Source of the DNA: Patescibacteria group bacterium
GTDB lineage: Bacteria; Patescibacteriota; Minisyncoccia; UBA6257; 02-FULL-45-10c
DNA: 43,235 bases
NCBI GenBank assembly: GCA_028865335.1
Contig: JAGWKK010000002.1
Span: 1-43,235 of the forward strand
Direction: 5' to 3'
In this document: positions 7,716 through 43,235 of the stretch, piece after piece
Layout: every line of letters begins with the position of its first letter
Position numbering within the stretch: position 1 is the first letter of the stretch
Position numbers and translations under genes: made by a program
Notes under the pieces: model-generated
Told to the model about the DNA's origin: nothing
The model's database searches: none
The model's input: the letters and a program-made list of their open reading frames with translations, nothing else

Positions 7716-9925
<2,210 letters not shown>

Positions 9926-13917: not shown

Positions 13918-14027
13918 GGCTTGTCGTTATGATCATAAAAAGTTCAACTCATTCAATTAGAATAAGATAACACCGACCAGCGGTATGTTGCGCTTTTGCG
14001 GTTCGCTTGGATTATGATGGAACCTTT

Positions 14028-14648
14028 TTAATCCCTTAAATCTGGTAATGCATTGACGATCTTATCCCAAACTTGCTTAATCTCATCTATAGAATACATT
14101 CTTTTAAATCTGATCCTTAAGTGATCCGGCTCTATAATAAGATTGATATCCTGTTCGCGAAGTTTATTTTTCAAATTTTCAAAATCAGCGGGATGCTGAA
14201 AATATTTCTCCATAAATCCGATCATTTGACCGGCGCCGGGATCAAACCCCGATTCATAGGTTTTATATCCTTTATCCTGTATTTTTACAATCGCATCTCT
14301 AACCTCCGGCTCAATCATTTCCATAAGCACTCCTAATTTTTGTTCTGCTGGAGTTTTAACAGGATTTTCTTGTCTACGCTTTTCAAGCGCCTTACTCATT
14401 TCGGCGAGGGTTGATTTGCGTAGCATAGCATATTGCGAATAAAGCTCTATTTGTTCTTTTGTGCAACCGGATAAGATTCGCAATCTTTCGAGCTCCTCAG
14501 GCAGATGGTTTTGCAAAACTTTTTCTATTGATTCCTCATCATATGTTTTATTATTTGGATTATATCCAAATAAAGCCCCGTCCTCGGGCGTCGGGATTTC
14601 TGGCGCGCTTTCCCTTGATCGCCTTGGTCCTTGTTTTTCTGGGTTCAT
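14028..14648 (-). CDS. hypothetical protein (206 aa), low-GC orphan
   Basis: Long ORF in a visibly AT-rich stretch next to the tRNA-Gln locus; no recognisable motif. Confidence 0.6.
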   Translation of the reverse strand: MNPEKQGPRRSRESAPEIPTPEDGALFGYNPNNKTYDEESIEKVLQNHLPEELERLRILSGCTKEQIELYSQYAMLRKSTLAEMSKALEKRRQENPVKTPAEQKLGVLMEMIEPEVRDAIVKIQDKGYKTYESGFDPGAGQMIGFMEKYFQHPADFENLKNKLREQDINLIIEPDHLRIRFKRMYSIDEIKQVWDKIVNALPDLRD

Positions 14649-14689
14649 GGATTACTAATAATTTATCACAAATACATTGATACGCACAT

Positions 14690-14880
14690 CACTTCTCGAC
14701 GGGGCGCAAGAATCAAGGCCCGCTCGCTGACTACCTGCAGGCACAGGCTCACTCGAACCGCGTCTGGGCACCCCTGCCTGCCGGCAGGCAGGTTCGGTTT
14801 CCCATCCCTTCCTGATGCGCCTGTCCCGCCAAAGCTTCAGCGGCGGAGGAGGGTGCTGCTGGTTCGAATCCCTTAGTCAC
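14690..14880. other. GC-rich structured non-coding segment with tRNA T-arm-like fragment
   Basis: Perfect 20-nt palindrome CCTGCCTGCCGGCAGGCAGG, hairpin CCCGCC-AAAGCTTCAGC-GGCGG, and GCTGGTTCGAATCC at 14858-14871 without a pairing T-stem. Confidence 0.3.
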
Positions 14881-14910
14881 AATATTTAAAAATTATATGT
14901 ATCGTAATTG

Positions 14911-14981
14911 TTCCGAGACAGGGATTCGAACCCCAATTTTCGCTTCCAGAGAGCGACGTCCTACCATTAGACGATCTCGGA
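14911..14981 (-). tRNA. tRNA-Gln (anticodon CUG)
   Basis: Hand-folded cloverleaf: acceptor TCCGAGA/TCTCGGA (U1-A72), U8, A14, GG in the D-loop, anticodon stem TCGCT/AGCGA, loop CUCUGGA, T-arm TGGGG-TTCGAAT-CCCTG. Confidence 0.9.
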
Positions 14982-15227
14982 ATATATCGTACCCAGCTTT
15001 CGCTTCAAAACCTTCTTTCCTTTGGCGCTTTTGTAGAACCTCTCCATCTCAAAAGCTTTATATAGATTCTCATACCCCTCCGAATAAATCAACGCTAAAG
15101 GTCGGCGACTTTTCGTAGATCGGACATAGCCATTATTATGATATTCCAATCGATCCTTAAGAGAAGCCGTGCATCCTATATATAGCTTCTTATCTTTCAA
15201 GCTTTTGAGAACGTACAGATACTGCAT
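14967..15227 (-). CDS. GIY-YIG nuclease superfamily protein (86 aa, UPF0213/YhbQ-like)
   Basis: YLYVLKS...KLYIGCT...RLEYHNNG...RRPL.LIY.E...E motif series. The last 5 codons and the TAA stop overlap tRNA-Gln nt 1-15. Confidence 0.85.
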   Translation of the reverse strand: MQYLYVLKSLKDKKLYIGCTASLKDRLEYHNNGYVRSTKSRRPLALIYSEGYENLYKAFEMERFYKSAKGKKVLKRKLGTIYSEIV

Positions 15228-15250
15228 GGTGATAGCTTGCTATCATTGCC

Positions 15251-15308
15251 GAGCGACGTCCTACCATTAGCCTCGCCCATAGGCTACGGCCGAGGGACGA
15301 TCTCGGAA
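15251..15308 (-). pseudogene. orphaned 5' half of tRNA-Gln (nt 1-32) interrupted by a 26-nt hairpin
   Basis: 15251-15270 and 15297-15308 are identical to 14951-14970 and 14971-14982; 15271-15296 is an inserted hairpin; identity stops in the anticodon loop. Confidence 0.7.
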
Positions 15309-15431
15309 TATCAAAAGACTACCTTGTATAGTGTACGTCACCTGCTGATAAAATTCAACGGCATGTGTACAACTCAATGATGGAATATGCTATGCTTATT
15401 CTTGTATCACAATTAACAACTATTTTCACAT

Positions 15432-16055
15432 ATGAACAGCAACAAGTTCATGGATGTAAATCCGCAAAAAAGAGGCGAGGGGATGATGGGTGATGAAATG
15501 CCGATGGAAGGAATGTCCCGGCCGTCGCGTTTGGGTAAATTAAAGGACATGTGCGCAAAATGCTATCCGCGCACGGCGTATGGCTGGCTTGCCACCCTGG
15601 TCGGCGCAGTATTGGTATGGTATCTGCTTGTTTCCTTGAGCATTCTGCCGTCACTGACGTTCCCGCTGGTTGATGGCGGAAAGTGGCAGGCGGTGTTCCT
15701 GTCCAACGGCCAGGTCTATTTCGGCCATCTGCACGAATTGAACAGCGACTACGTTGATCTTACGAACATCTATTATCTGAATGTCACCGGCCAGGCGCAG
15801 TCAACAAGTCCGAACGCCCAGCAGCAAATCAGCTTGGTAAAGATGGGCAATGAATTGTACGCACCGGAAGATATGATGAACATTCCGAAGTCGCAGATCG
15901 TCCACTGGGAGAACATGCAGGCGAATTCGCCGGTAGTGCAGGCGATTGCCGCCGCAGTCACCCAGGCACAGCAACGGGCCGCAGCTCCCGCAGCAAATGC
16001 TCCGACAGCTCAGCAACCGGCTGCAGCCCCGGCAGCGACCGCTCCCGCAAAATAG
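15432..16055 (+). CDS. hypothetical membrane-anchored protein with Ala/Gln/Pro-rich tail (207 aa)
   Basis: Single TM (WLATLVGAVLVWYLLVSLSIL) and low-complexity C-terminus. Confidence 0.65.
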   Translation: MNSNKFMDVNPQKRGEGMMGDEMPMEGMSRPSRLGKLKDMCAKCYPRTAYGWLATLVGAVLVWYLLVSLSILPSLTFPLVDGGKWQAVFLSNGQVYFGHLHELNSDYVDLTNIYYLNVTGQAQSTSPNAQQQISLVKMGNELYAPEDMMNIPKSQIVHWENMQANSPVVQAIAAAVTQAQQRAAAPAANAPTAQQPAAAPAATAPAK

Positions 16056-16065
16056 TGTCGCTATT

Positions 16066-16092
16066 CAAAAAACGCCCCTTCGGGCGTTTTTT
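16066..16092. terminator. bidirectional intrinsic terminator
   Basis: AAAAAACGCCC-CTTC-GGGCGTTTTTT between convergent genes. Confidence 0.7.
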
Positions 16093-16103
16093 GTTTTGAG
16101 CTG

Positions 16104-16880
16104 TTATCCGATCAGATCGCGGTAGCCGTTCATGAAATCCGCGTAGGTCATCGGCTTCTTTCCTTCGGGCTGCACTTTCTTCAGATCGAGCCTCCCGTCG
16201 GCAAGATCCGCCTCCAAAAGCTTCAGGCGCAGATCTTTTCCATTCTTCAGATGCAGTACCGTAAAAGCACCCGGCTCCGGATTGAGCGCGCGGATTTTCA
16301 GCCATGCTGACCGGGGATCGCCCGCCAGATCGACTTCGGCATCAGCGGTGACAAATTTGCGCGTAAACGTCGCCTTCGATTCGTCCTGGGGCACGGCGGT
16401 CAGGGAGTCGTCCAGCCAGGCCGGCATCGTCGCGATCAGCAGGTCGGCGCTCAGGCGAGCCAGTTTTTCAATCAGCGAAACATACGTGTCCTGATCGGTG
16501 ATGGCGAGTTTTTTTTCTGCAAGCACCGGTCCGTTGTCCACTTTTTCATCGATCAGGAACAACGCCGTCCCGGTTTCATTCTCATCATGCAACAGAACGC
16601 TCTGTACCGGCGACGCGCCGCGGTAGCGGGGGAGCAGCGACGGATGGATACCGATGGTGCCGCGCGGCGGAATGATAAGCAGATCCTTTTTGAGGATCTT
16701 CCCGAACGCGGCGACAACGAAGAAATCCGCATTGAGCGAACGCAGGTGGTCCAGGTCCAGCGGCTTTTTGGCATCGCGGACCGCCTCAACCGGCGGCATC
16801 CCGGCCGCAATCAGGGAATCCAGAATGATCTGAGCGAAGGCGGATTCGCGTCCGCCGAAGAAAATATAGCGAGGTATCAT
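16104..16880 (-). CDS. fmt: methionyl-tRNA formyltransferase (short, 258 aa)
   Basis: HPSLLPRYRGASPVQ motif; immediately downstream of def. Confidence 0.9.
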   Translation of the reverse strand: MIPRYIFFGGRESAFAQIILDSLIAAGMPPVEAVRDAKKPLDLDHLRSLNADFFVVAAFGKILKKDLLIIPPRGTIGIHPSLLPRYRGASPVQSVLLHDENETGTALFLIDEKVDNGPVLAEKKLAITDQDTYVSLIEKLARLSADLLIATMPAWLDDSLTAVPQDESKATFTRKFVTADAEVDLAGDPRSAWLKIRALNPEPGAFTVLHLKNGKDLRLKLLEADLADGRLDLKKVQPEGKKPMTYADFMNGYRDLIG

Positions 16881-16975
16881 GTGTCAAGTATCAAGTGTCA
16901 GGTTATGGAGTGTCAAGGATTCGTCTTTGTTGCGCGACCCTCCTTTATTCCTAATTCGTTATTCCCGATTCGTCA
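16881..16975. repeat. phased heptamer stutter tract (fmt-def spacer, running into the def 3' end)
   Basis: gtgtcaa|gtatcaa|gtgtcag ... tttattc|ctaattc|gttattc|ccgattc. Confidence 0.6.
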
Positions 16976-18393: not shown

Positions 18394-19653
18394 ATGGATA
18401 TGCTGCAGCACTTCAGGGAGAAATACGGACATCGCATTCCATTGTATACGGCGGTTTTTATCGTGGCCGCTGCGGCGGGCATCGCGCTGTTCTACGGAGG
18501 ATATGAACTGGGCATCCGCCATCCGAAGGTGGTGACGCTGGACAATGTGACGAACACTGATGCCAAATCGGATATCACCGCGAATTTCGGCACGTTTTGG
18601 GAAGCCTGGGATGTCATGAAGAACGAATACCTGAAAGGAGCCGACCTGACGAATCAGAAGATGGTGTACGGCGCGATCACGGGCCTGGTCAATTCCGCCG
18701 GCGATCCGCACACGATATTCCTGCCTCCGCCTGATTCGGTGAAATTCCAGCAGGATGTATCCGGCAATTTCGGCGGCATCGGCGCGGAGATCGGCATCAA
18801 GAACAGCCAGCTTGTCATCATCGCTCCACTCAAGAACAATCCGGCCGAGCAGGCGGGTCTGAAAGCGGGGGATGCGATCGTCGCGATCGACGGTAAATCG
18901 ACCGACGGCATCGATGTGAACAGTGCGGTGGAGAAGATCCGCGGCGAAATCGGCACCACGGTGACGCTGACCATTTTCCGCGACGGCTGGGATCATACCA
19001 AGGACTTCAAACTGGTCCGCGCGAATATCCAGGTTCCGACGCTGGATACCGAAATGCTTCATATCAACGGCAAGACCATCGCGCACATCTCGCTGTACGC
19101 CTTCAACGAGAATGCTCCGCTCGGTTTCTATCAGGCTGCGCTGACGGCGCTCTTCAACAAGTCCGACGGCATCATCCTGGATCTTCGCGATAATCCGGGC
19201 GGCTATCTGGAGGTGGCGACCAATCTCGCCGGCTGGTTCGTGAACAAAGGAGCGGTCGTCGTCAAAGAACGTTATCGCACCGGTAACGAAGACACCTTCT
19301 ACGCGAACGGCAACGAAGCGCTGAAAGATGTGCCGATGGTGATCCTGGTGAATAAAGGTTCCGCATCCGCCTCTGAAATTCTCGCCGGCGCCCTCCGCGC
19401 GATCCGCGGCGTGAAACTGGTGGGTACGAACACGTATGGAAAGGGGACGGTGCAGGAACTCCGCACACTCAGTGACAACTCGCAGATCAAATTGACGATC
19501 GCCAACTGGGTATTGCCGGACGACACCATCATCAGCGAAGACGGCCTTGCGCCGGATGTGGAAGCGGACCTGTCCGATGCCGACATCGCAAATCACAACG
19601 ACAGCCAACTGAAAGCTGCTGAGGATACGCTGCTTAAGGAACTCGGCAAATAG
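18394..19653 (+). CDS. S41 carboxy-terminal processing protease with PDZ domain
   Basis: PDZ GLKAGDAIVAIDG; catalytic region NKGSASASEILAGAL. Confidence 0.9.
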   Translation: MDMLQHFREKYGHRIPLYTAVFIVAAAAGIALFYGGYELGIRHPKVVTLDNVTNTDAKSDITANFGTFWEAWDVMKNEYLKGADLTNQKMVYGAITGLVNSAGDPHTIFLPPPDSVKFQQDVSGNFGGIGAEIGIKNSQLVIIAPLKNNPAEQAGLKAGDAIVAIDGKSTDGIDVNSAVEKIRGEIGTTVTLTIFRDGWDHTKDFKLVRANIQVPTLDTEMLHINGKTIAHISLYAFNENAPLGFYQAALTALFNKSDGIILDLRDNPGGYLEVATNLAGWFVNKGAVVVKERYRTGNEDTFYANGNEALKDVPMVILVNKGSASASEILAGALRAIRGVKLVGTNTYGKGTVQELRTLSDNSQIKLTIANWVLPDDTIISEDGLAPDVEADLSDADIANHNDSQLKAAEDTLLKELGK

Positions 19654-19691
19654 TCCAGAGTCAAAGGTTGAAGGTCTATAAAGTGAGAAAT

Positions 19692-19820
19692 AAAAAAAGC
19701 CCCCGACCGAAGTCGGGGGGTACGAGAGCGGTCCTCCCACAGTACGAATACGAACAGCCGCAGGAGGCACACATGACCCCGAAGGGTCACCCCGGTTGCT
19801 TAAGCCGAGTAATTGTACGT
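19692..19820 (-). ncRNA. candidate small structured RNA (about 130 nt), promoter-to-terminator unit
   Basis: TTGACA (19855-19850), 17-nt spacer, TAGTAT (19832-19827). UUCG-capped hairpin GUGACCC/GGGUCAU. Terminator CCCCCGAC-UUCG-GUCGGGGG plus U-run. Shares a 41-nt module with 23214-23254. Confidence 0.5.
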
Positions 19821-19861
19821 GGTTTAATACTACCTCAATTCAAATAATTTGTCAATACCCT

Positions 19862-19887
19862 AAAAAACATCCCGCAAATGCGGGATG
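19862..19887 (-). terminator. rpmA terminator (bidirectional hairpin)
   Basis: CATCCCGC-AAAT-GCGGGATG flanked by A- and T-runs. Confidence 0.7.
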
Positions 19888-19892
19888 TTTTT

Positions 19893-20165
19893 TTAGAGAA
19901 CGCTGACGACGGTTATCTTTCTTCGTGATCCGTCGAAACGGGTCTTCTTGGAAGTGGTGAATTTCACTTTACCGTTCTTCATCGCGTAGATCGTGTCGTC
20001 GGCTCCCTGTTTGACGTTGGTGCCGAGCGAATACTTGCTGCCGCGCTGGCGGATGAGGATCTGTCCTGCCATCGCCATTTCGCCGTCCGCTTTCTTTACG
20101 CCGAGCCGTTTTGATTCTGATTCTCTATTATTATGGGCTGCGCCCACCGATTTAGTATGTGCCAT
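19893..20165 (-). CDS. rpmA: 50S ribosomal protein L27
   Basis: MAHTKSVGAAHNNRESESKRLGVK... canonical L27 N-terminus. Confidence 0.95.
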   Translation of the reverse strand: MAHTKSVGAAHNNRESESKRLGVKKADGEMAMAGQILIRQRGSKYSLGTNVKQGADDTIYAMKNGKVKFTTSKKTRFDGSRRKITVVSVL

Positions 20166-20319
20166 AATTTCCCGAGAGCGAAGCGATTGGCTGAAATTAT
20201 GAGCATCCCGCCGTAGCTTTAGCGGAGGCGGACGCCATTCATTTGCTTATCGCAGCACCCTCAATTAATTTACCTAATCTATAGTATACCATACTGACGG
20301 ATAATGCAAGAGGCGTGGG

Positions 20320-20386
20320 GTGGTCGAAGGTACAAAGTACAAAGTCAAAAGTCATAAAACTAAAAATCATAAAGTTGAATAAAAAA
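20320..20386. repeat. phased heptamer stutter tract
   Basis: ggtcgaa|ggtacaa|agtacaa|agtcaaa|agtcata|aaactaa|aaatcat|aaagttg. Confidence 0.55.
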
Positions 20387-20416
20387 TCCCCCGACCGAAG
20401 TCGGGGGGGGTGATGT

Positions 20417-20977
20417 CTAAATGGTGAGTGAAGATGACGAGATCAACCGGATCAAGTTTCGCATTTCGGATTCCTCGATCATAGACGGCTTTGCCGGCAT
20501 CGAAAGGTCGGGGCGGATCGGATCGACATACGGCGGTGCGCCGAAGGTCTGGAAACCAAGTTCATCGCTCACTTTACCGCCGCAAAGCGTTTCAACGGTT
20601 ACGGATATCTTTCGCAGTACAGACGCCTCGTGTTTCTTTTCCTCGGCTATTTGGTATTCCTCCCGAACATTATTATGCTCAAAATTGATGAACGCTCTCT
20701 CATACATCATTCCAAAACCTCTTTCTATCGCCTCTTCCGGCGATTCGCAAGAATCAGAAGGAACAGTCTGAACGAGTGATCCGCCGATAGAGATGACCAC
20801 TCCCTCGGGAAACGTGCGCAATTTCAACGTGAAACCGCCATGTCGCGTCTTGGTTCCTGGCTTATTGTTCCAATCCGGTTCCCATTCTTGGAAATAACTG
20901 GCAAGCGATTTAGAAGCACTCCGCTTGCTTTTCCAGAATACTTGTTTCAGCTGATTGAGGAGTAGTTCTTCGAGCAT
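20417..20977 (-). CDS. hypothetical protein (about 186 aa), lower-GC orphan
   Basis: Second ATG (20977) follows GGAGG; consensus promoter upstream; terminator CCCCCCCGAC-TTCG-GTCGGGGG downstream. Confidence 0.6.
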   Translation of the reverse strand: MLEELLLNQLKQVFWKSKRSASKSLASYFQEWEPDWNNKPGTKTRHGGFTLKLRTFPEGVVISIGGSLVQTVPSDSCESPEEAIERGFGMMYERAFINFEHNNVREEYQIAEEKKHEASVLRKISVTVETLCGGKVSDELGFQTFGAPPYVDPIRPDLSMPAKPSMIEESEMRNLIRLISSSSLTI

Positions 20978-21010
20978 CTTTCCTCCCATGTTATCAACGA
21001 AGCCGTTTCT

Positions 21011-21039
21011 ATAATAGCGATAAATGGAATAATTGTCAA
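21011..21039 (-). promoter_or_regulatory. consensus sigma70-like promoter for ORF 20417..20977
   Basis: Minus strand TTGACA (21039-21034), 17-nt spacer, TATTAT (21016-21011). Confidence 0.55.
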
Positions 21040-21054
21040 AGCCGTTCTGCAGTC

Positions 21055-21194
21055 ATTAGAAATTAGAAATTAGGAATTAAAACTCATGACGCATGACTCA
21101 TGACGCATGACTCGTGACTCTTGATTCATGACACTTGCCACCTGACACCTGAAACATGAAACCTTATGGACCTTATGGACCTTTGACTTTACAG
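21055..21194. repeat. 20 consecutive in-phase degenerate heptamers; left inverted arm
   Basis: attagaa|attagaa|attagga|attaaaa|ctcatga|cgcatga|ctcatga|cgcatga|ctcgtga|...|cacctga|cacctga|aacatga|... The reverse complement matches 26727-26830. Confidence 0.8.
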
Positions 21195-21195
21195 A

Positions 21196-21966
21196 CTACC
21201 CCAAGTATCCCACCTGTTTCAGCCATTTCTCATTTTCCCATTCCCAGAGTCTCTTCGCGCCGAGGAAGGCCTGGAAGTCGTGCTTCCAGTCGGGGAATTC
21301 CTGCAGTTCAGTGACGCCGGTGAGTTCGGACCATTCGTGCTGATCCTGCGGACACATCGTCTTTTTCCCGCGGCGGATTTTGTTGCGGCCGCCTTTCGGG
21401 CGCATCGTCGCGCCACACTTGAGACAAGTGCGGACCTGATCGATCCGGAGAATCCAGCGGGTCTGCAGCTTGGGCAATTCGTCCAACAGAGCTTCTATAT
21501 ATGCGGCAGTCTGGAGGTTGTAGTCGCGATAGATCGCCTGAGAGGTCTTGATATCCAGGACGCCGAACTTGCCGTCCACCAGCGCCAGCGTATCGATCGT
21601 GCCCGCATACCGGTGTTCCGGATGGAAGATGCGCTTTTCCACGAACTTCGGGTCCACGCGGATTTCGCGGGTCTTCACGAAATCAAGAAATCCCTGCACG
21701 GCCGGTGCGATGGAAGCGGGGATATGCGGATGCTCGCCGACCATCAGTTTTTCCACGGTTTCGTGGATCAGCGTCCCTTCCCGCGCGGAATTTTCGGTGA
21801 TCGCTTTTGCGGCATTGTAACTCGCGGCCTCGCCATAGAACCGGTAGAGCGCCGGTTTGGATTTTATCTCGACTATTTTCGTGACGCGCGGATACCACTT
21901 GCCGTCGATGGCATATCCGGCCTGATCCTTGAATTCCTCGACATTGGAATAATCGAAAAGCGACAT
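21196..21966 (-). CDS. PD-(D/E)XK nuclease, RecB/lambda-exonuclease-like, with C-terminal zinc ribbon (256 aa)
   Basis: GTIDTLALVDGKFGVLDIKTS (D...DxK) followed by QTAAY (QxxxY); CLKCG...CPQDQH. ATG 21966 preferred; the 143-aa N-terminal extension of the listed ORF is rejected. Confidence 0.75.
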   Translation of the reverse strand: MSLFDYSNVEEFKDQAGYAIDGKWYPRVTKIVEIKSKPALYRFYGEAASYNAAKAITENSAREGTLIHETVEKLMVGEHPHIPASIAPAVQGFLDFVKTREIRVDPKFVEKRIFHPEHRYAGTIDTLALVDGKFGVLDIKTSQAIYRDYNLQTAAYIEALLDELPKLQTRWILRIDQVRTCLKCGATMRPKGGRNKIRRGKKTMCPQDQHEWSELTGVTELQEFPDWKHDFQAFLGAKRLWEWENEKWLKQVGYLG

Positions 21967-22029
21967 AGATGGATATATTCTTGCATGGTATCGGTTTTTT
22001 GGATAGAGTGAAGAGCGGATAGTGCGAGC

Positions 22030-22407
22030 GTGGAGAATACCGTGCTGACGAAACCCGAGAAGTCCTTCGTCCGGCTGCTCCGGGATGGAACGGCCCGGCA
22101 ATATCTGCGGTGGCAGAGGATCTCGCCGACGCATATCCAGGTGCACATTGACGACGTATCGGTTTCGATGGATCGTGTCGGTGAGATGCCGACGCTTTCG
22201 GTGGGATTGGAAAATACCGCACGCCACGATGTCAGGGATATGAGCCTCCAGAAAGCGCTGTTCTGGATCCACTTCTGGTCTACGGTCGATTCCACGAGCG
22301 CCTTCTGGTATCCGGATGCCTTTCCTCTCCAAAAACCGCGGCGATGGCAGCGTGCGCGCGGACGATTTCTCGCGCGGCTCACCTCGGCCGCACAACGACT
22401 CTTCTGA
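22030..22407 (+). CDS. possible hypothetical protein (GTG start, 125 aa), or a non-coding transcript
   Basis: A plus-strand terminator sits exactly at the ORF end; the composition is not convincingly coding. Confidence 0.3.
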   Translation: MENTVLTKPEKSFVRLLRDGTARQYLRWQRISPTHIQVHIDDVSVSMDRVGEMPTLSVGLENTARHDVRDMSLQKALFWIHFWSTVDSTSAFWYPDAFPLQKPRRWQRARGRFLARLTSAAQRLF

Positions 22408-22417
22408 GTCGTTTTTT
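22395..22417 (+). terminator. intrinsic terminator
   Basis: ACGACTC-TTCT-GAGTCGT then TTTTTT. Confidence 0.6.
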
Positions 22418-22492
22418 CATGCACGTTTGCTTGACGGGAGGACTGTCTTTGCGTAGGGTGGAGAGGACTCGTGAATCCTTGAAAGGTGAAAA

Positions 22493-22966
22493 ATGAAGAA
22501 GATCGCACTCGGCGTGCTCGTACTCGGCCTTGCGGGATGCATGGCGGACGTCCGTCAGGACGCGCATACCTACATCCTCAAGGAAGTTCCGGTGGTGATG
22601 ACCGGCGCGATGGACGGAAATTCATCGGCCTCGGGAAATCAGCTTGGACCGACTGTCGAGATGGCTCTGCTGGACCAAAGCCGGCCCGGGACGAAGCAGC
22701 TGACCGATCCGGAGGAGGACGTCTCGCTGCTCGCCTGCGCTTCGACGGTGCGCATCGAGATCGACCCCGCGCTCAGCGAATGGTTCAGCAACTACCAGTA
22801 TTCCGAACTGTTCAGTGCCGAGCGGGTGACGACCGACGCCACCTGGCCCCGCCGCTATTTCGCATCGGGAGCCGTGGTCATCAAAGTGGATGACACTCCC
22901 CGTAAACGCGAGATCGAGGATGCGCTCCGCATTCTGCGCAACCACTCGTGTCCCGGAAAGAACTGA
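22493..22966 (+). CDS. lipoprotein (157 aa)
   Basis: Signal peptide with lipobox LGLAGC; TTGACG-17-TAGGGT promoter upstream. Confidence 0.75.
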   Translation: MKKIALGVLVLGLAGCMADVRQDAHTYILKEVPVVMTGAMDGNSSASGNQLGPTVEMALLDQSRPGTKQLTDPEEDVSLLACASTVRIEIDPALSEWFSNYQYSELFSAERVTTDATWPRRYFASGAVVIKVDDTPRKREIEDALRILRNHSCPGKN

Positions 22967-22988
22967 GCTGCAGCAATGCAGCTTTTTT
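22966..22988 (+). terminator. intrinsic terminator
   Basis: AGCTGCA-GCAA-TGCAGCT then TTTTTT. Confidence 0.7.
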
Positions 22989-23061
22989 ATTTGGCTCAAC
23001 CACTGCGCCCGTATTTTATAGGTATTGACAAATAAGCACTCGATATGCTAGATTATATTTA

Positions 23062-23324
23062 ATCCACAGGCGCAGTAGTCCTTCTCGCAACGGTCTCGAG
23101 GCCGTTGGACCCCGAGAAGAGCGCGCTCGTAATACGTGGAGCGAACGGATCCCGTGGGTCCGTGGCCCTGCGACCATGCTCTAGCGGAGGGTCTCTGCTA
23201 AAGCTAAGGACAAAGGGCTCCTTTTACTCGGCTTAGGCAACCGGGTCGACTCTTCGGAGTCGTGATCGGCTTTGGAACTCAATCCTCAGCTGTCAGCGCC
23301 TTCCCCCAAAGCTTCGGCTGCGGG
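23062..23324 (+). ncRNA. candidate structured RNA (about 260 nt), or a terminator-containing leader of the protease gene
   Basis: GGTATTGACAAAT promoter (TTGACA 23025-23030, TAGATT 23049-23054). Nested helices CTTCTCG/CGAGAAG around CAACGG/CCGTTG. UUCG hairpin CGACTC/GAGTCG. Terminator 23293-23324. No ORF. Confidence 0.5.
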
Positions 23325-23411
23325 GGATTTTTTTATATCAGTTTTAGCTCTGGATTTCTCTCAATAAATACCGTACAGTGAAAATATCCTTGAAAATCCG
23401 AAAGAGGACGA

Positions 23412-24011
23412 ATGCACGTAATCGTCGTCGTTGGGAAACCGAGTAACGAAGATTCACGCAAGGATCGGTTTGAAATCGCTGCGACCAATACGATCCTTAA
23501 CCTCCGTATAGATTTCGATATGGCTCGGAAAGACGATCTTTCTTACGTCTGGGGACCTGCTTCGCGGGTACAGAAGCGCCTTGAAGCTATCTTCCTGGAG
23601 AAGCGCGACGAAGACATCTGCCTTTTCTATTTCGGCCATGGGGCTGAGTACGGATGGGCGATGCTAGGCGATCGACGCCCCGGCTCCGTCCTCGCGTACG
23701 AAGACCTCCGGCTGACGCTTGCGCAGCATTCCGGAAATCTTCTCTTTATCAACGCTCCGTGCTACGCCGGCGCCGCATCCGATGCGCTGGAGGGACATGG
23801 CGGAGCGCATTGTCTGATCGCTCTGGTCCCTCGCGATAAATGCGGCTATCCCGAAAACTTCATCCATTCCATATTCGGATCTTGGCGCGCTCGCCGCTTT
23901 TTCAATCCGCGAGATCCCTGTTTTGGGAATGTAGAAGACAATGCCCCTGTCGTCGAAGGCGATATCGAGTTGCAGCAGCTGATGTTCCCGAAAAAGGAGG
24001 CATTCGTATGA
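23412..24011 (+). CDS. minimal clan-CD (caspase/legumain-like) cysteine protease fold, paralog 1 (199 aa)
   Basis: ICLFYFGHGAEYG (His76) and LLFINAPCYAGA (Cys117) with 41-residue spacing, as in the clan-CD His-Cys dyad. Confidence 0.65.
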   Translation: MHVIVVVGKPSNEDSRKDRFEIAATNTILNLRIDFDMARKDDLSYVWGPASRVQKRLEAIFLEKRDEDICLFYFGHGAEYGWAMLGDRRPGSVLAYEDLRLTLAQHSGNLLFINAPCYAGAASDALEGHGGAHCLIALVPRDKCGYPENFIHSIFGSWRARRFFNPRDPCFGNVEDNAPVVEGDIELQQLMFPKKEAFV

Positions 24012-24232
24012 ACCGGAAAGAGCGCAAGAGCTACGTCGAGCTGACGCGATACCTGATTCTCATTGCTGCGACGGTCGCGTTCGCCGTAGCGACTTATCCG
24101 CTGCTCTATTATTCCGGTGCGCTGAAATTGATGAATGACATTTCAGTGGCGTTGACGATTTCGCTGCGCAACCTGATTGAACACCAGAATCCTACGATCA
24201 CCGTCCCGTATCCGAAGCAGCCGCGCCGGTAG
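24008..24232 (+). CDS. small membrane protein (74 aa), translationally coupled to the protease
   Basis: ATGA start/stop overlap with the upstream CDS; one clear TM (YLILIAATVAFAVATYPLLYY) and a second amphipathic segment. Confidence 0.55.
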   Translation: MNRKERKSYVELTRYLILIAATVAFAVATYPLLYYSGALKLMNDISVALTISLRNLIEHQNPTITVPYPKQPRR

Positions 24233-24242
24233 AGTATCATCC

Positions 24243-24305
24243 CCCCGCCATTCCAGGTGGCGGGGACCCGCCCTCGCACCTTTGATAAGGTAGTGAGGGT
24301 TTTTT
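24243..24305 (+). terminator. tandem hairpins / terminator
   Basis: CCCCGCCA-TTCCAGG-TGGCGGGG, then CCCTCGC...GTGAGGG followed by TTTTT. Confidence 0.6.
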
Positions 24306-24335
24306 AATTTCCCCGCCACTGGTACAATAAGAGAC

Positions 24336-25385
24336 ATGGACCTGACCACGATCGCCATTTTCATACTGATCCTTATCGGCTTCGCCGTACTGTACGCCGC
24401 GATCAAGAATCAACCGCAGCCGGAGACAAAAAAAGATGAACAGTCGCTTCTGATGCTCCAACAACAGCTGCAGGATCTGCGCCGTACCTTGGATACGCAG
24501 CTCGGCGCCTCCACGCGCTCCATGCAGTCGCAGTTCAGCGAGAGCGCGAAAATCATCCGCGATGTCACCGAACGCCTCACGAAACTGGATGAGACCAACC
24601 GCCAGGTGGTCAGCTTCGCCGACCAGCTTCAGAATCTGCAGGACATCCTGAAGAATCCGAAACAGCGCGGCATCCTCGGCGAATATTATCTGGAGGAGAT
24701 CCTGAAGAACGTCCTGCCGCCGGGCCGCTATCAGATGCAATATCCGTTCAAGAACGGCGACATCGTAGATGCGGTCATTTTCGTGCAGGACAAAGTGATT
24801 CCGATCGATTCCAAGTTCAGCCTGGAAAATTACAACCGCCTTCTGGAAGCGCACGAAGAATCCGAACAGGCCGATCTGGAAAAAGCATTCAAGCAGGATC
24901 TCAAAAACCGCATCGATGAGACGGCGAAATATGTGAAGCCGGAAGAGGGGACGATGGACTTCGCGTTCATGTTCATCCCGGCGGAAGCGATTTACTACGA
25001 TCTGCTCGTCAACAAGATTGGCGCGGCGAAAACGAACACGCGCGACCTGATCCAGTACGCATTCAAGGACAAACATGTCATCATTGTTTCGCCGACGTCG
25101 TTCCTGGCGTATCTGCAGACCGTTCTCCAGGGATTGAAGGCGTTGCAGATTGAAGAATCCGCAAAGGAGATCCGTAAGCGGGTGGAGATGCTCGGCAAAC
25201 ACCTCGGCAGTTACGAGGATTACATGAAAAAGCTCGGCACCCACCTCGGCACTTCCATCAATATGTACAACAGCGCCTATAAGGAGCTCGGGAAGATCGA
25301 CAAGGACGTTCTGAAGATCACCGACTCGGCCATCGGCATCGAACCGGAATTGCTGGAACGACCTGAACTGACGGAAGTGGAATAG
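24336..25385 (+). CDS. rmuC: DNA recombination protein RmuC
   Basis: N-terminal TM, long coiled coil, and a RmuC C-terminal nuclease-like core (GILGEYYLEEIL..., FMFIPAEAIYYDLL). Confidence 0.88.
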   Translation: MDLTTIAIFILILIGFAVLYAAIKNQPQPETKKDEQSLLMLQQQLQDLRRTLDTQLGASTRSMQSQFSESAKIIRDVTERLTKLDETNRQVVSFADQLQNLQDILKNPKQRGILGEYYLEEILKNVLPPGRYQMQYPFKNGDIVDAVIFVQDKVIPIDSKFSLENYNRLLEAHEESEQADLEKAFKQDLKNRIDETAKYVKPEEGTMDFAFMFIPAEAIYYDLLVNKIGAAKTNTRDLIQYAFKDKHVIIVSPTSFLAYLQTVLQGLKALQIEESAKEIRKRVEMLGKHLGSYEDYMKKLGTHLGTSINMYNSAYKELGKIDKDVLKITDSAIGIEPELLERPELTEVE

Positions 25386-25410
25386 AAAAGAGCGCGTAGC
25401 TCTTTTTTAT
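25386..25410 (+). terminator. intrinsic terminator
   Basis: AAAAGAGC-GCGT-AGCTCTTTTTT. Confidence 0.65.
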
Positions 25411-25466
25411 TTGACCGGCGCCTTATTTTTATTTACAGTAGTATCAGTTCTCAAAAATGCGAGGTG

Positions 25467-26039
25467 ATGATGAGCGAGCTTGAAAAGCAATCCGGACCTC
25501 TGATGAGCAGTGAGATATACGGAATTCTCGAAGTCATCGGCAAGAAAATACAAGCGGGTGAATTCGACGGCCAACTCGGCGGAGGATCGCCCCACGACTG
25601 GCAGATCCGTATAAGCGGCACCAAGAAGATAAAGTTCTCTTTCTTCTCGTACGACCGGTCGAACAGCGCCCTCGTCTTTCCGGTGCTCATATGCGGGCCT
25701 CTGGTCCCGATGATCGGGATGCTGACCTATAGCATAGCGCTTTCCTTTCTCGCATTTGTTGTCGGCATGGCGATGATATGGCTCGTTATACACTGGCTGG
25801 GAAACATATTCGGGAAAGACAAGCGCTATATGACCGGACGACTCACTGTCGCCAATGAATCATTGGTGATGGAATCCCGGTGCGCCGTAGGGTCTGACGG
25901 GAGGGTTTGGACCGAAAGCGGATATGCCGATCTCGCGCAACTGCAGCAGATGGTGATCGAGCGGATCAAGATGATCCATTCCGGCAGAGGCAATCTGCCG
26001 AAGATGAAAAAGTACCTCAACGATTCAGAAGGAGCGTAA
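25467..26039 (+). CDS. hypothetical 2-TM membrane protein (about 190 aa)
   Basis: GAGGTG before ATG; central hydrophobic pair (LVFPVLICGPLVPMIGML..., FLAFVVGMAMIWLVIHWL). Confidence 0.6.
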   Translation: MMSELEKQSGPLMSSEIYGILEVIGKKIQAGEFDGQLGGGSPHDWQIRISGTKKIKFSFFSYDRSNSALVFPVLICGPLVPMIGMLTYSIALSFLAFVVGMAMIWLVIHWLGNIFGKDKRYMTGRLTVANESLVMESRCAVGSDGRVWTESGYADLAQLQQMVIERIKMIHSGRGNLPKMKKYLNDSEGA

Positions 26040-26051
26040 GCTCCTTTTTTG
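26031..26051 (+). terminator. intrinsic terminator (stop codon in the loop)
   Basis: GGAGC-GTAA-GCTCC then TTTTTT. Confidence 0.65.
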
Positions 26052-26066
26052 TTTTATACTGACCGT

Positions 26067-26726
26067 ATGGAAAAACATGACGAGCTTTACCGGAAAAAAT
26101 GGCGGAAATTCCAGCAGCGGGCGTGGCTGTTCCGGTTCATTCCGTTCGTGGATTTCGTATTCGCCGCGGGATCGCTCGCGACCGGTAACGTTCATGAAGC
26201 GTCCGACTTCGATGTGATTGTCGGCGCACGACAGGGGAGAATTTTCACTGTCCGCTTTTTCTGCTTTCTTGTTTTCAAGCCGCTTGGCCTCTGGGCGCGC
26301 CATCCCGATCACTCAAAAGATCGCATCTGCTTCAATCATTTCGTGACTCCGTACGGCTACCGCCTCCGTCCGCCGCATAACGCCTATTGGCAGAACTTGT
26401 ATGCGTCTTTGATTCCGGTCTACGGCAATCCGCGGATCATGCAGCGGTTCTGGCGCGCGAACCGGGGATGGATGAAGGGACCGAAACTCTATGAACCGAT
26501 GTCGGACAAACCGCTCGGCCGGAAATCATGGATTGCGAAACTGGGCGAGGCGATGCTTGCCGGCAGGTTTGGTACCTGGGTTGAGCTCAAGCTGAAAAAT
26601 CTGCAGTTGGAAACCATCGCTTCCGATCGGAATCATCAGGAAGAATACAAACCGCGGATCATCATCAGCGATGACGAATTGGAGTTCCATCCGCATACGA
26701 AACGAATTGAGGAATACAGCGCGTAG
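26067..26726 (+). CDS. nucleotidyltransferase-fold (Pol-beta superfamily-like) protein (219 aa)
   Basis: AAGSLATGNVHEASDFDVIV fits the GS-x(n)-DxD minimal NTase motif; ATG 26067 preferred over TTG 26049. Confidence 0.6.
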   Translation: MEKHDELYRKKWRKFQQRAWLFRFIPFVDFVFAAGSLATGNVHEASDFDVIVGARQGRIFTVRFFCFLVFKPLGLWARHPDHSKDRICFNHFVTPYGYRLRPPHNAYWQNLYASLIPVYGNPRIMQRFWRANRGWMKGPKLYEPMSDKPLGRKSWIAKLGEAMLAGRFGTWVELKLKNLQLETIASDRNHQEEYKPRIIISDDELEFHPHTKRIEEYSA

Positions 26727-26978
26727 TCCAAAGTCCATAAGGTCGAAGGTCCATAAGGTCCGTCAGATTTCATGTTTCAGGTGTCAGGTGGCAAGTGTCA
26801 TGAGTTTTAATTCCTAATTCCTAATTCCTAATTCCTAATTCCTGCATTTATTCGTGGTGTTCGTATAACCCATGCATTCTGTTCGTATTAGACTGTTCGT
26901 AGTGTTCGTGTGGCCATTCTTATTCGCATTAAACCCAATTACTAATGACCAATGCCTGATGACTGATTGCGTAATCTT
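26727..26978. repeat. about 36 in-phase degenerate heptamers; right inverted arm
   Basis: ttcatgt|ttcaggt|gtcaggt|ggcaagt|gtcatga|gttttaa|ttcctaa x4|...|gttcgta|ttagact|gttcgta|...|aatgacc|aatgcct|gatgact. Confidence 0.8.
26808..26842. repeat. perfect tandem repeat (TAATTCC)x5
   Basis: Five exact 7-nt units counted directly. Confidence 0.95.
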
Positions 26979-26981
26979 TCC

Positions 26982-27010
26982 TTGACTAATTCTACTTATT
27001 GCAGTAAGAT
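26982..27010 (+). promoter_or_regulatory. sigma70-like promoter for ORF 27065..27415
   Basis: TTGACT 26982-26987, 17-nt spacer, TAAGAT 27005-27010. Confidence 0.5.
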
Positions 27011-27064
27011 ATCATCGACACACCAAAAGGCGTTTCGCGGAAAATCCACGAGGAGGATGGTTGT

Positions 27065-27415
27065 ATGTGGAGCGCAATACTCGCTCTTCTGACTACGGTC
27101 GCGATCACGATGCTTGCAACTCTTTATATCAATGAAGGCGAGGTCTTTCTCGGAGTTCTGTACGCCGCTTTCGCCGTCACCGTTGGATGCAGTGCGCTTA
27201 CCATAGCGCGACGCGCAGGAGCCGGCCATCCCGACACCGACTTGCTGCCTCCGGGCATCTACTCCGTCCTCTCGTCGGTGAAAACAAAAAACGGGTACGC
27301 CGTTGTCACCCGCATGGATTCCGGCAACGGAAGCGTGCACATGTACCTGCTCAAGACGGATCCACCGAAGCACCTCAAGTCCACCGAGTACGGATTGATC
27401 CGGCCGTATCCGTGA
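27065..27415 (+). CDS. small 2-TM membrane protein (116 aa)
   Basis: GAGGAGG before ATG; two N-terminal TM helices; own terminator. Confidence 0.65.
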   Translation: MWSAILALLTTVAITMLATLYINEGEVFLGVLYAAFAVTVGCSALTIARRAGAGHPDTDLLPPGIYSVLSSVKTKNGYAVVTRMDSGNGSVHMYLLKTDPPKHLKSTEYGLIRPYP

Positions 27416-27426
27416 AGCGGCACACG

Positions 27427-27461
27427 TCCCCCGACAGATCGTATCGTCGGGGGATTTTTTT
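27427..27461 (+). terminator. intrinsic terminator
   Basis: TCCCCCGAC...GTCGGGGGA then TTTTTTT. Confidence 0.7.
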
Positions 27462-27538
27462 ATTGAATCAACTTCTGTCGCCTTGTGATAAATACCGACC
27501 TTCTCTATACTGAAGACAGATCCGTGAAATGAGGTTCC

Positions 27539-27889
27539 GTGGCGAAACAGGCGAACCCGTGGGAAGATCTCGCGGAAGAGGCACTGGTGGAGCTCGTTGC
27601 CGAGGGTGCACTCAAGGGATTTCTGCGCAACAGGCAGAGCGACTGGCTCGACTGCGAAGGAATCGATTTTCTCCTTTTTCTGAACAACGGGTCCTCGCTC
27701 ACCATCCAGGTGAAAAGCGCGCACGGCAATCTGAAACACAAGATAAAGGAACACCTCCGCAAGCATCCGTTTGTCAGATCGATCCTGTTCGTCCTCCTTC
27801 CGGAACAACCTGAAAACTCAGTCGAGCGGCAGAAGGCCATCGCACTGGTCAAGAAAGACATTTCGCGCCTCATCGCTCCTTACCGCTAA
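27539..27889 (+). CDS. small Mrr-cat-like PD-(D/E)XK-fold protein (116 aa, GTG start)
   Basis: DCEGIDFLLFLNNGSSLTIQVKS resembles the Mrr-type GIDG...IQ(A/C)K core; own promoter and terminator. Confidence 0.5.
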   Translation: MAKQANPWEDLAEEALVELVAEGALKGFLRNRQSDWLDCEGIDFLLFLNNGSSLTIQVKSAHGNLKHKIKEHLRKHPFVRSILFVLLPEQPENSVERQKAIALVKKDISRLIAPYR

Positions 27890-27901
27890 GGAGCTTTTTT
27901 A
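27875..27901 (+). terminator. intrinsic terminator
   Basis: GCTCCTTA-CCGC-TAAGGAGC then TTTTTT. Confidence 0.7.
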
Positions 27902-27973
27902 TTTGCTTTTATCTTTGACTGAGAAGGCGCTGCTGGTGTAGGCTCAGAACAGATCACCGACAAGAGGAAACCG

Positions 27974-28753
27974 ATGAAAGCGATCCTGCTGCTATACGAC
28001 GAGGCCGAATCCCGCATCGCCGTTGAGGCAGTGCGCGGACAGAAGGAAAAGCAGAAAGTCGATTACCGATGCACCTGCGTCCGCAATGCCACGCTGGAAA
28101 AAGCGCGGCGGTTGCTTCGCTACCTCCGTGTGCCGTGTCGGATGAAACCGGACGAGACCGCCATTCTGACCTCCACGCATTTCGTCGCGGGCTCGGACAT
28201 CCAGCGGGCGATTCACGACGCGATCAGGCGTTTCGCCGATGACGACATTCTTCTGTTCTACTCAGGCCACGGCGGAGAACAAAGTTGGGATCTGGGTGAA
28301 CGGATGAACACTCGGAAATTCGTGCTCTTCAAGGAGCTCGCAGGCATGATCGCGATGAGTGCCCGGAAGCATGTCGGAATCATCGCCGATTGCTGTCACA
28401 CACTTGCCCTTGACCGCTATCTTGCCGATCTGAGAAAACTGGACGGCCGGTATCTCCTGATCGGATCAAGCCAGGCGGATCGTGTCGGCAGCGAGAACGT
28501 CTCCCTGGCCCATCCGATATGCGACGCGTGGGAGTTCCGGCAGATGGCGGATATCCGCGTCGGGAAGATCGAGAAACTCCAACACGGAACCGTCATGGAC
28601 ATTCCGTTCAATGCTCCGTACATATCCGGCGGAAATCCCGACTGCAAATGCGGAGAGGAGATCGTCGGCGGACTGACGTATCTTCCGTATGAACGCCCTC
28701 CGCTCCGCCGCGGAAGCAACCTCGATCATCTGTTCTTTCCTCCCGAGCCCTAA
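27974..28753 (+). CDS. minimal clan-CD (caspase/legumain-like) cysteine protease fold, paralog 2 (259 aa)
   Basis: ILLFYSGHGGEQ (His99) and VGIIADCCHT (Cys140/141) with the same spacing as paralog 1; shared C-terminal L..L(M/F)FP motif. Confidence 0.65.
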   Translation: MKAILLLYDEAESRIAVEAVRGQKEKQKVDYRCTCVRNATLEKARRLLRYLRVPCRMKPDETAILTSTHFVAGSDIQRAIHDAIRRFADDDILLFYSGHGGEQSWDLGERMNTRKFVLFKELAGMIAMSARKHVGIIADCCHTLALDRYLADLRKLDGRYLLIGSSQADRVGSENVSLAHPICDAWEFRQMADIRVGKIEKLQHGTVMDIPFNAPYISGGNPDCKCGEEIVGGLTYLPYERPPLRRGSNLDHLFFPPEP

Positions 28754-33654: not shown

Positions 33655-33799
33655 TTTACGAAGTCCGACCTCGTAAAAATACCTCCACCGCTGACCTTAT
33701 AGACTTTCGTCTCTATGACCTTTGACCATCTCCATCTTATCCACACGTGGGGATAAATCATCCTTGTTCTTTGCGTACGCGGAATCTATAGTAAAGAAC

Positions 33800-37263: not shown

Positions 37264-37332
37264 ATGTTCTAAATGTTCTAGATGCTCTAGATGTTCTAGC
37301 GTTCATGGTGTTCTAGTGTTAGAGTAATATCC
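37261..37332. repeat. 9-nt/7-nt stutter tract (taaatgttc x2, tagatgctc, tagatgttc ...), left flank of the four-helix-bundle gene
   Basis: Read directly; inverted relative to 37714-37777. Confidence 0.75.
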
Positions 37333-37713: not shown

Positions 37714-37777
37714 AAACCCTCAGACGCTTTCAATCATTAGAACAGCTACAACAACTAGAACATTAGAACGTATCCAT
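37714..37777. repeat. stutter tract, right flank (tagaac words)
   Basis: cattagaacagctacaacaactagaacattagaacg is the inverse orientation of the left-flank gttcta words. Confidence 0.7.
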
Positions 37778-43197: not shown

Positions 43198-43235
43198 TCT
43201 CCTATTATCCGTGCATATGCACGGATAATAGGAGA
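43198..43235. repeat. perfect 38-nt palindrome at the window edge
   Basis: TCTCCTATTATCCGTGCAT|ATGCACGGATAATAGGAGA, 19-bp arms, no mismatch; may extend past the window. Confidence 0.9.

Follow-up and report, generated by a model that had tools for sequence, protein, structure and literature searches.

Inverted heptamer arrays at the two ends of a 5.5-kb gene block in a Patescibacteria group bacterium

The gene block and its two arms

The DNA studied here is a 43,235-nt stretch (hereafter the window; positions 1 to 43,235 of contig JAGWKK010000002.1, GenBank assembly GCA_028865335.1) from a Patescibacteria group bacterium of the GTDB lineage Minisyncoccia; UBA6257; 02-FULL-45-10c. Within it, a gene block of about 5.5 kb runs from a nuclease gene on the left to an NTase-fold gene on the right. 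Both end genes face outward, and each is followed by a tandem array composed mostly of 7-nt units; the two arrays, referred to as the left and the right arm, are inverted with respect to each other. In the initial annotation, the arms were taken either for the terminal inverted repeats (TIRs) of a mobilisable or invertible cassette or for a gene-sense element of the 3' untranslated region (3'-UTR). The present analysis concerns the nature and the origin of these arms.

The nuclease, a PD-(D/E)XK / Cas4-like protein of 256 aa identified by weak Cas4/PD-(D/E)XK matches, is encoded on the minus strand at 21196-21966. Its true start is an internal ATG, the 399-aa open reading frame (ORF) that begins with TTG being over-extended, and more than 2000 homologues of about 253 aa are found in Harrisonbacteria and other Parcubacteria. 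The NTase-fold gene (26049-26726, plus strand) has a weak PF01909 match and stands behind rmuC in four related loci (L004, L014, L005, and L012). The rmuC gene of the window (24336-25385; PF02646) has its best relatives in metagenome-assembled genomes (MAGs) of Patescibacteria, and the host is a Patescibacterium of Parcubacteria/Harrisonbacteria-like type. Outside the block, the left flank carries def, a LigT-like phosphoesterase gene, ctpA, and rpmA, and the right flank carries a caspase-like gene, groES, and groEL.

A repeat search of the window returned an ungapped inverted pair of 72 nt, 90% complementary, at 21126-21197 and 26732-26803 (5534 nt apart), from which weaker, out-of-register matches between the arms run on to 21048 and 26846. 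When both arms are written in gene sense, a gapped alignment pairs about 101 positions with a single 42-nt gap, and the longest exact match is 36 nt (21126-21161 against 26768-26803). The arms are therefore inverted homologues, as first proposed, and their homology is longer than had been claimed; the 29-nt exact match reported initially lies inside the 36-nt match, with its left copy at 21133-21161 instead of 21132-21160. The remaining inverted pairs in 20000-28000, a self-palindrome at the window end apart, are at most 27 nt long and imperfect, with no more than 15 nt fully complementary. That palindrome, perfect over 38 nt at the very end of the window (43198-43235), may be a terminator or an assembly-end artefact.

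The gapped alignment also confirmed an in-register excess of 42 nt in the left arm, which is made of six units (ATCAAGA GTCACGA GTCATGC GTCATGA GTCATGC GTCATGA). The placement of the gap is ambiguous by one unit (21084-21125 or 21091-21132), so that the left-arm-only surplus falls within 21084-21132 on the minus strand. Its units resemble GTCATGA, the unit next to them, and repeat with a sub-period of 14 nt, for which Tandem Repeats Finder (TRF) gives a period-14 row at 21082-21132.

The TAG stop codons at 21196-21198 (minus strand) and 26724-26726 (plus strand) immediately precede the two arrays, in agreement with the earlier statement that the arms start at the stops of both outward-facing genes. 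The gene-proximal heads of the arms stand outside the heptamer register and follow a 9-/7-nt AAGTC/AGGTC pattern with CCATAAGGT units. The left head (21152-21195, minus strand), right after the nuclease TAG, consists of TCTGTAA AGTCAAA GGTCCATAA GGTCCATAA GG, with a TRF period of 9 at 21161-21183 (100%), and the right head (26727-26761, plus strand), right after the TAG of the NTase-fold gene, consists of TCCAAAG TCCATAAGG TCGAAGG TCCATAAGG TCC. The 7-nt-period part of the left arm (21047-21160, minus strand, about 16 units) is delimited by TRF (21055-21164), the period-7 profile, and the inverted match; in nuclease sense its units run TTTCATG TTTCAGG TGTCAGG TGGCAAG TGTCATG ... GTCATGC/GTCATGA x4 ... 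TAATTCC TAATTTC TAATTTC. The corresponding part of the right arm (26762-26846, plus strand; TRF row 26762-26843) holds the 36-nt exact match together with (TAATTCC)x5. The remainder of the right spacer (26847-26981, plus strand) has no left-arm counterpart; an aperiodic stretch with scattered GTTCGTA (26847-26929) is followed by a short tract of five heptamers (26930-26965, plus strand; TTACTAA TGACCAA TGCCTGA TGACTGA TTGCGTA). The left arm had been described as 20 heptamers in one unbroken register, which holds for 21047-21160 but not for 21152-21185, where the period is 9 (ACCTTATGG x2.6). Similarly, the right tract, drawn out to 26978, is 7-periodic at 26762-26846 and 26930-26965, but 9-periodic at 26733-26761 and without a period between the two heptamer parts.

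In a 42-nt autocorrelation of the window, in which periods 3-15 were compared, period 7 (and its multiple 14) dominates; at a lower threshold, period 9 accounts for 19 windows against 108 for period 7, and all the other periods stay below period 9. Neighbouring units that are nearly identical, such as GTCATGC/GTCATGA with its 14-nt period, (TAATTCC)x5 as against TAATTCC TAATTTC TAATTTC, and ATTAGAA x3, are a signature of slippage.

Each arm sits between a stop codon and the predicted promoter of the next co-directional gene. Directly past the left array lies a sigma-70-like promoter, TTGACA-17-TATTAT (21011-21039, minus strand; 11 of 12 matches), which would drive a lineage-specific orphan gene of 190 aa on the outer side of the arm (20417-20989, minus strand), a gene with its own predicted promoter and terminator. 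Past the right spacer, TTGACT-17-TAAGAT (26982-27010, plus strand) would drive a second lineage-specific orphan gene, of 116 aa (27065-27415, plus strand), on the outer side of the right arm. Neither product matches a family in Pfam, NCBIfam, or PADLOC, and both were found only in the same population; for the 116-aa orphan, there was also no tblastn match in 80 rmuC loci.

Some further features of the window are recorded here. About 520 nt (21970-22492) separate the true nuclease start from the lipoprotein gene and close with a terminator (22394-22413); a 125-aa ORF with a GTG start (22030-22407) within this region is of doubtful coding status. Two paralogous caspase-like genes (weak Peptidase_C14 / EACC1-type matches) lie within the block (23412-24011) and outside it (27974-28753), and both match the same gene of L004. 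At 14001-15500, around tRNA-Gln (14910-14981), the GC content is 0.38-0.49 compared with about 0.55 elsewhere, and this segment may be foreign or atypical DNA.

Related arrays in the window and in other genomes

Besides the two arms, four related arrays are present in the window. Behind the ctpA stop, where a sequence similar to the arms had already been noticed, a short array (19654-19690, plus strand; TCCAGAG TCAAAGG TTGAAGG TCTATAA AGTGAGA) abuts a minus-strand terminator (19700-19719), and the terminator-plus-array module at this tail is about 88% similar to the module at 20306-20407. The latter comprises the terminator of the 190-aa orphan gene (20388-20407) and, after it, an AAGTC-type heptamer array (20306-20379, plus strand; GGTCGAA GGTACAA AGTACAA AGTCAAA AGTCATA ...), which is antisense to both neighbour genes. 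The def-fmt spacer (16874-16973, plus strand) contains GTGTCA-type and TAATTCC-type units in the order and orientation of the right arm and is antisense to def and fmt, and AAGTC/AGGTC-type units (33655-33724, minus strand; AAAGTCTATAAGGTC ...) are antisense to the flanking plus-strand genes. With the left arm (21047-21195), the right arm (26727-26846), and the ctpA tail in the sense of their local genes, the six arrays divide into three sense and three antisense.

Only two other contigs of the same population were found; they come from independent assemblies, and both match the window exactly. The first, L081/L087 (MAG REEB161, GCA_028865305.1), covers 20193-21609 and the second, L088 (Logan SRR32006850), covers 26822-27732, each at 100% identity; L088 breaks off within (TAATTCC)n. 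L081 is the one independent contig to span a junction, the left one, and has the arrangement of the window in the reference orientation.

The period-7 excess was measured in the window and in related loci, namely 80 rmuC loci (1.31 Mb) and 80 nuclease loci (0.83 Mb); over these 2.1 Mb, period-7 tracts are more than 10 times as numerous as those of any other period. The rmuC loci contain 23 period-7 tracts as compared with 0-6 tracts for the other periods from 5 to 11, and the nuclease loci contain 64, as compared with at most 5 for the other periods from 4 to 12 and none after block shuffling, which corresponds to about 77 period-7 tracts per Mb around the nuclease locus. Relative to background, the enrichment is about 7-fold in windows that follow stop codons and likewise in windows that precede start codons. 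In co-directional spacers of the 160 related loci, the tracts have no A/T strand bias relative to transcription (16 vs 15), and divergent spacers hold fewer tracts than convergent ones (3 vs 7, against equal backgrounds).

A pan-bacterial scan for (NNARGTC)x4 arrays, for which chance alone would give about 17 matches by our own estimate, listed more than 120 loci or genomes, in Bacteroidota, Cyanobacteria, Verrucomicrobiota, Acidobacteriota, Planctomycetota, Xanthomonas, and others. The arrays listed often abut gene ends, 23 in sense and 27 in antisense orientation. By a crude gene call, about one third of those listed (L089-L208) fall within long ORFs. Essentially, then, a like motif is present at many unrelated genes without a partner, which was the observation that the initial annotation had named as speaking against cassette ends.

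Multi-unit strings are common to dispersed arrays of a single genome in several other cases: L262 (direct, 4.4 kb), L251 (inverted, 1 kb), L284 (inverted, 3.8 kb), L005, and L265. The arm pair is a strong case of this general pattern, in which dispersed arrays in either orientation share strings of several units.

The sites of the two arms differ in their occupancy among relatives. After the nuclease stop, an AAGTC-type array is present in L004 and L212, both with the vocabulary of the left-arm head, an unrelated CTA-type heptamer array is present in L084/85, and there is none in L086; after the NTase stop, an array is present in none of 11 relatives. Selection for an array at the nuclease 3' end throughout the phylum was considered and rejected, since a strong array follows the stop in 4 of 78 orthologues (5%), near the general rate of 3.7%, and persists only in the closest relatives.

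A different type of array, (TTTCTAY)n, occurs at the start of one ORF of 417-460 aa in at least six genomes (L224:3330-3373, L236:2812-2860, L247:4061-4147, L251:2954-3006, L258:1555-1598, and L270:1058-1108). It may encode a hydrophobic N-terminus (FLFSIFY...) or sit in the 5' leader. In L262, the TTTCTAY unit precedes the start codons of the nuclease gene and rpmA.

Origin of the arms and rival explanations

The arms are dispersed copies of a composite short-period array, mostly of 7-nt units with a 9-/7-nt AAGTC head. It is likely that they arose as intergenic simple sequence repeat (SSR) arrays through slippage, one having been partly copied onto the other by ectopic recombination, and that they are not the ends of a cassette. 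As the anatomy of the arrays suggests, such arrays would grow, shrink, and change their units by replication slippage in 7- or 14-nt steps, and each genome has its own unit vocabulary, common to arrays at many sites and in either orientation. The simplest history of the arm pair would have three steps. An old array would have existed at the nuclease site; about 100 nt of it would then most likely have been copied into the NTase spacer by ectopic homologous recombination or gene conversion, unless a third array was the source of both; and the copies would subsequently have diverged by slippage, with a 42-nt expansion in one, and with TAATTCC x5 as against x1 plus two TAATTTC. Of the two sites, that of the nuclease gene is probably the older, as an AAGTC-type array is found there in relatives too, while none of the 11 examined has one after the NTase-fold gene. 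The inverted orientation of the arms appears to be incidental, and in all probability they delimit no mobile or invertible unit. By default, the arrays are taken to be spacer DNA at transcription-unit ends, neutral or under weak selection.

Several observations weigh against such an origin. The AAGTC / TAAGGTC vocabulary is conserved across the window, L004, L212, L083, L213, and L084, which neutral slippage does not require and which could indicate a sequence-specific factor. The array at the nuclease 3' end persists in the closest relatives despite a protein divergence of about 25%. Neither arm contains an intrinsic terminator, whereas most co-directional spacers of the window have one. Both arms border lineage-specific orphan genes, a hint that the arrays may be connected with gene gain. 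That one arm was converted by the other is itself an inference, and copies of the module of about 100 nt were counted in the window alone.

The gene order in relatives bears directly on the proposal that the arms bound a cassette. In L004, whose RmuC is 83-86% identical, the genes are arranged as def - ctpA - rpmA - nuclease - caspase-like - rmuC - NTase - caspase-like - groES - groEL, with matching order and relative orientations. The linkage of the nuclease gene to rpmA, ctpA, def, and fmt across the left arm is kept in five relatives (L004, L083, L084/85, and L086), and the order rmuC-NTase-groES-groEL across the right arm is kept in L004, with the NTase-fold gene and groES both present in L014 and L005. 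In L083 and L084/85, iPGM adjoins the nuclease gene on its other side, and therefore the rearrangement took place within the block and not at the arms. It had been suggested that related genomes be inspected for absence or relocation of the block as a unit; in those examined, the end genes remain linked to the genes outside.

The view that the arms are the TIRs of a transposon-like or mobilisable cassette reaching from the nuclease gene through the NTase-fold gene has a single support, namely that the two block ends are, formally, inverted homologues. In having two inverted homologous sequences around a segment of DNA, the arms do resemble transposon TIRs, miniature inverted-repeat transposable elements (MITEs), and invertible switches; however, they differ from all of these in the conserved synteny of the end genes with outside genes, in being tandem arrays of a generic, phylum-wide kind, and in the lack of a transposase, an invertase, and a visible target-site duplication. 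When all ORFs of the block and its flanks were searched against Pfam, NCBIfam, and PADLOC, none matched a transposase, integrase, or invertase. The outer flanks, ...TTCTGCAGTC (21045-21054) and GCATTTATTC (26845-26854), are unrelated and give no sign of a target-site duplication, although this is a weak test with array ends as fuzzy as these. A 22-mer from the core of the arms has no match in viral contigs, one match in genome contigs, which is from the same population, and one in metagenome contigs (L082). The cassette part of the initial annotation is thus not upheld, and it can hardly be the explanation of the arms. That RecA now and then inverts the 5.5-kb segment, as a by-product and with no dedicated switch function, is also improbable. 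The arms could serve as substrates, with 36 nt of exact and 72 nt of 90% inverted homology at a distance of 5.5 kb, which is near the minimal length for homologous recombination. Nevertheless, the orientation is identical in the window, in L081 from the same population, and in all relatives examined, and no invertase was found. Moreover, an inversion would leave every promoter-gene relationship as it is, since the end genes point outward with their stops at the arms, and the promoters lie outside the arms.

The match in L082 deserves mention by itself. At L082:300-420 there is a heptamer array (... ACTTGCC ACCTGAC ACCTGAA ACCTGAC ...) with 22 nt identical to the arms. This contig is GC-rich and otherwise dissimilar to the window, and its ORFs look on inspection like an SNF2-type helicase and a DNA methyltransferase; the array was rejected as a homologue of the arms and is read as convergence in low-complexity arrays, the contig suggesting an unrelated organism. 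Shared CCCCCGAC-UUCG-GUCGGGGG terminators were likewise considered as cassette ends and rejected, since the hairpin also ends two putative non-coding RNAs and is therefore a common terminator. The units in question, at about 23060-23335 (plus strand) and about 19716-19825 (minus strand), run from promoter to terminator without an ORF and have in common a stretch TACTCGGCTTA(A/G)GCAACCGGG followed by a CTTCGG hairpin. They gave no credible Rfam match and are possibly paralogous small RNAs.

A functional role could be sought in punctuation at the ends of transcription units, where the arrays would be an unstructured DNA or RNA platform for a lineage-specific binding protein and act as insulator, roadblock, factor-dependent terminator, or 3'-UTR stability element. 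The arms stand in for the intrinsic terminator of most co-directional window spacers and are each directly followed by a strong promoter, so that the arrays sit where a termination signal would be expected, which leaves room for this role. In addition, in the window as in L004 and L212, the stop codon leads straight into the array (TAG TC...), the AAGTC-type vocabulary is shared by several related genomes, and divergent spacers, where promoters lie, are avoided. On the other hand, orientation is mixed at every level, in the window, in the related loci, and across phyla, unit sequences are wholly different between genomes at the same site, and a strong array follows the nuclease stop at near the general rate. 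No RNA structure supports it either: both arms were folded on both strands, and no fold in gene sense is significant (z = -1.42, -0.11, and +1.88 vs shuffles). Over the whole window, Rfam at gathering thresholds returned two tRNAs only and nothing in the arms, and a scan at E<=1 of 19600-23500, which covered the left arm only, returned spurious leader matches only. A structured RNA or a terminator was rejected for the arms on the basis of these scans and the folding. A Rho-utilisation site was rejected as unsupported, the arms being without the C-over-G excess of such sites, and the idea of a three-frame stop is uninformative, for stops occur in all frames of both strands as expected for AT-rich units. 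Overall, punctuation is an unlikely explanation. The gene-sense 3'-UTR element of the initial annotation is not borne out, in view of the mixed orientation and the missing RNA fold, but its underlying notion of a generic element in place of cassette ends is nearer the truth. Still less probable is a tie between arrays and gene gain, according to which each arm and the promoter-orphan gene-terminator unit outside it would be a scar or landing site, with inverted array pairs bracketing single inserted genes and not the 5.5-kb block. At least 35 relatives have, beside the nuclease gene, a conserved gene for a 48-aa membrane protein; this gene is absent from the window, where the 190-aa orphan stands at its position between complementary, inverted AAGTC-type arrays (21055-21195 and 20306-20379; duplex z = -4.2). 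The PF05635 gene between the LemA and M48 peptidase genes is flanked by inverted 9-mer arrays, PF05635 genes of L083 and L213 are similarly embedded, and the right arm borders the second orphan gene. However, the two orphan proteins are unrelated to each other, no inverted partner array follows 27065-27415, and no integrase was found. Some inverted array pairs enclose nothing at all, such as those in murC loops and in an L084 spacer, and the shared hairpin terminator is present at unrelated sites too.

The PF05635 genes encode 23S rRNA intervening-sequence proteins (bAvd-like). In the window, the gene (37333-37713) lies between LemA (36706-37263) and the M48 peptidase gene (37778-38677), and its flanks at 37257-37325 and 37730-37768 carry the 9-mer arrays GTTCTAGAT... 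and ...TAGAAC in inverted orientation (duplex z = -5.6). In L083 (about 15590-16263) and L213 (about 8645-9226), too, PF05635 genes are embedded in arrays of the TATAAGTC type in inverted orientation.

Known heptamer repeats and significance of the arrays

The arms are the Patescibacterial counterpart of the heptanucleotide long SSRs of cyanobacteria, where they are called short tandemly repeated repetitive (STRR) sequences, of Xanthomonas, and of Beggiatoaceae. A literature search for heptamers in Patescibacteria and for simple sequence repeats in the candidate phyla radiation found no relevant paper in the library searched, and to our knowledge heptanucleotide SSRs have not been described from this group before. 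The STRR sequences are reportedly tandem heptamers in non-coding DNA, and the likeness lies in this and in a lineage-conserved unit vocabulary at many dispersed loci. The arms are not STRR in the strict sense, as the host is a Patescibacterium and the units differ from the STRR1-3 consensus. An isolated TGACCAA at about 26943, the complement of STRR2 (TTGGTCA), is the only STRR unit recognised.

The STRR sequences go back to Mazel et al. 1990, as cited in PMC4692102. An excess of heptanucleotide long SSRs in prokaryotes was described by Mrazek et al. 2007, as summarised in PMC4679880 and PMC4692102. As far as these summaries go, the SSRs resemble the arms in their head-to-tail 7-nt units, the period-7 excess, the mostly intergenic position, and slippage as the proposed origin; by the same summaries, the arms differ in being strongly heterogeneous, with several unit types in a fixed order that is common to two dispersed copies. 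For the GGGAATC repeats of Xanthomonas and the GGGGA(C/T)T repeats of Nostoc, the mean distance is 28 nt to the preceding ORF and 160 nt to the following one (Rehm et al. 2015, PMC4692102). Neither strand is preferred, divergent ORFs seldom have such repeats between them, 70-75 inverted pairs are included, and the repeats recur between the same gene pairs in relatives, with varying length and sequence (PMC4692102). Patescibacterial arrays likewise abut the end of the upstream ORF, have no strand bias, are rare in divergent spacers, vary in length and units at orthologous sites of relatives, and frequently form inverted pairs, whereas the units of the arms are not G-rich, do not allow a G-quadruplex, and vary within an array, and the inverted partners are 5.5 kb apart and not adjacent. 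The TAACTGA direct repeats of marine Beggiatoaceae are intergenic heptamers with a scattered phylogenetic distribution, for which a binding protein is suspected (MacGregor 2015, PMC4679880). They repeat a single invariant unit, read forward and placed immediately before start codons, an arrangement that points to translational control (PMC4679880); the arms, in contrast, come after stops and before promoters, have mixed units, and keep to no consistent strand.

Arrays of heptamers also enter coding DNA. In Parcubacteria murC (Mur_ligase, Mur_ligase_M, Mur_ligase_C), a gene located just upstream of the nuclease gene in relatives, the loop from RRMEYRG to (V/I)(Y/F)DDYAHHP is encoded by about five in-frame heptamers in 26 of 43 genomes (e.g. 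L223, L228, L256 at 4864-4929, L266, and L270). The units vary by genome (CATGTCG, GGTGTCA, AAAATTG, GATGTCA, and others) and the ORF is always open; the shortest loops (11 aa) lack an array, and the longest hold two arrays in inverted orientation. Together with the accessory-gene cases, murC shows that the arrays persist while their units turn over, tend to form inverted pairs, and are tolerated in coding DNA.

A more active role is a speculative and rather improbable extension of these cases, namely that the heptamer arrays of Parcubacteria are the product of an active, lineage-wide process. It would be consistent with the genome-specific vocabulary, homogeneous over dispersed sites in both orientations, the fixed sites with unit turnover, the in-frame tolerance in murC, an essential gene, and the inverted pairs around recently gained genes (the 190-aa orphan and the PF05635 gene). 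If this were true, gene gain and protein loops in these minimal genomes would be shaped by a recombination-prone network, and each arm would be one of its nodes.

Inverted heptamer arrays are a generic spacer feature in Patescibacteria and should therefore not be annotated as the ends of mobile elements. Since the genomes of this phylum are streamlined, at about 1 Mb, a density of about 77 period-7 tracts per Mb is unexpected, and the unexplained excess of heptanucleotide repeats in bacteria is extended to a new and very large phylum. The arrays break short-read assemblies, as in the contig L088, which ends inside (TAATTCC)n, and they offer homology for ectopic recombination; as the case of murC indicates, they can also write protein loops.

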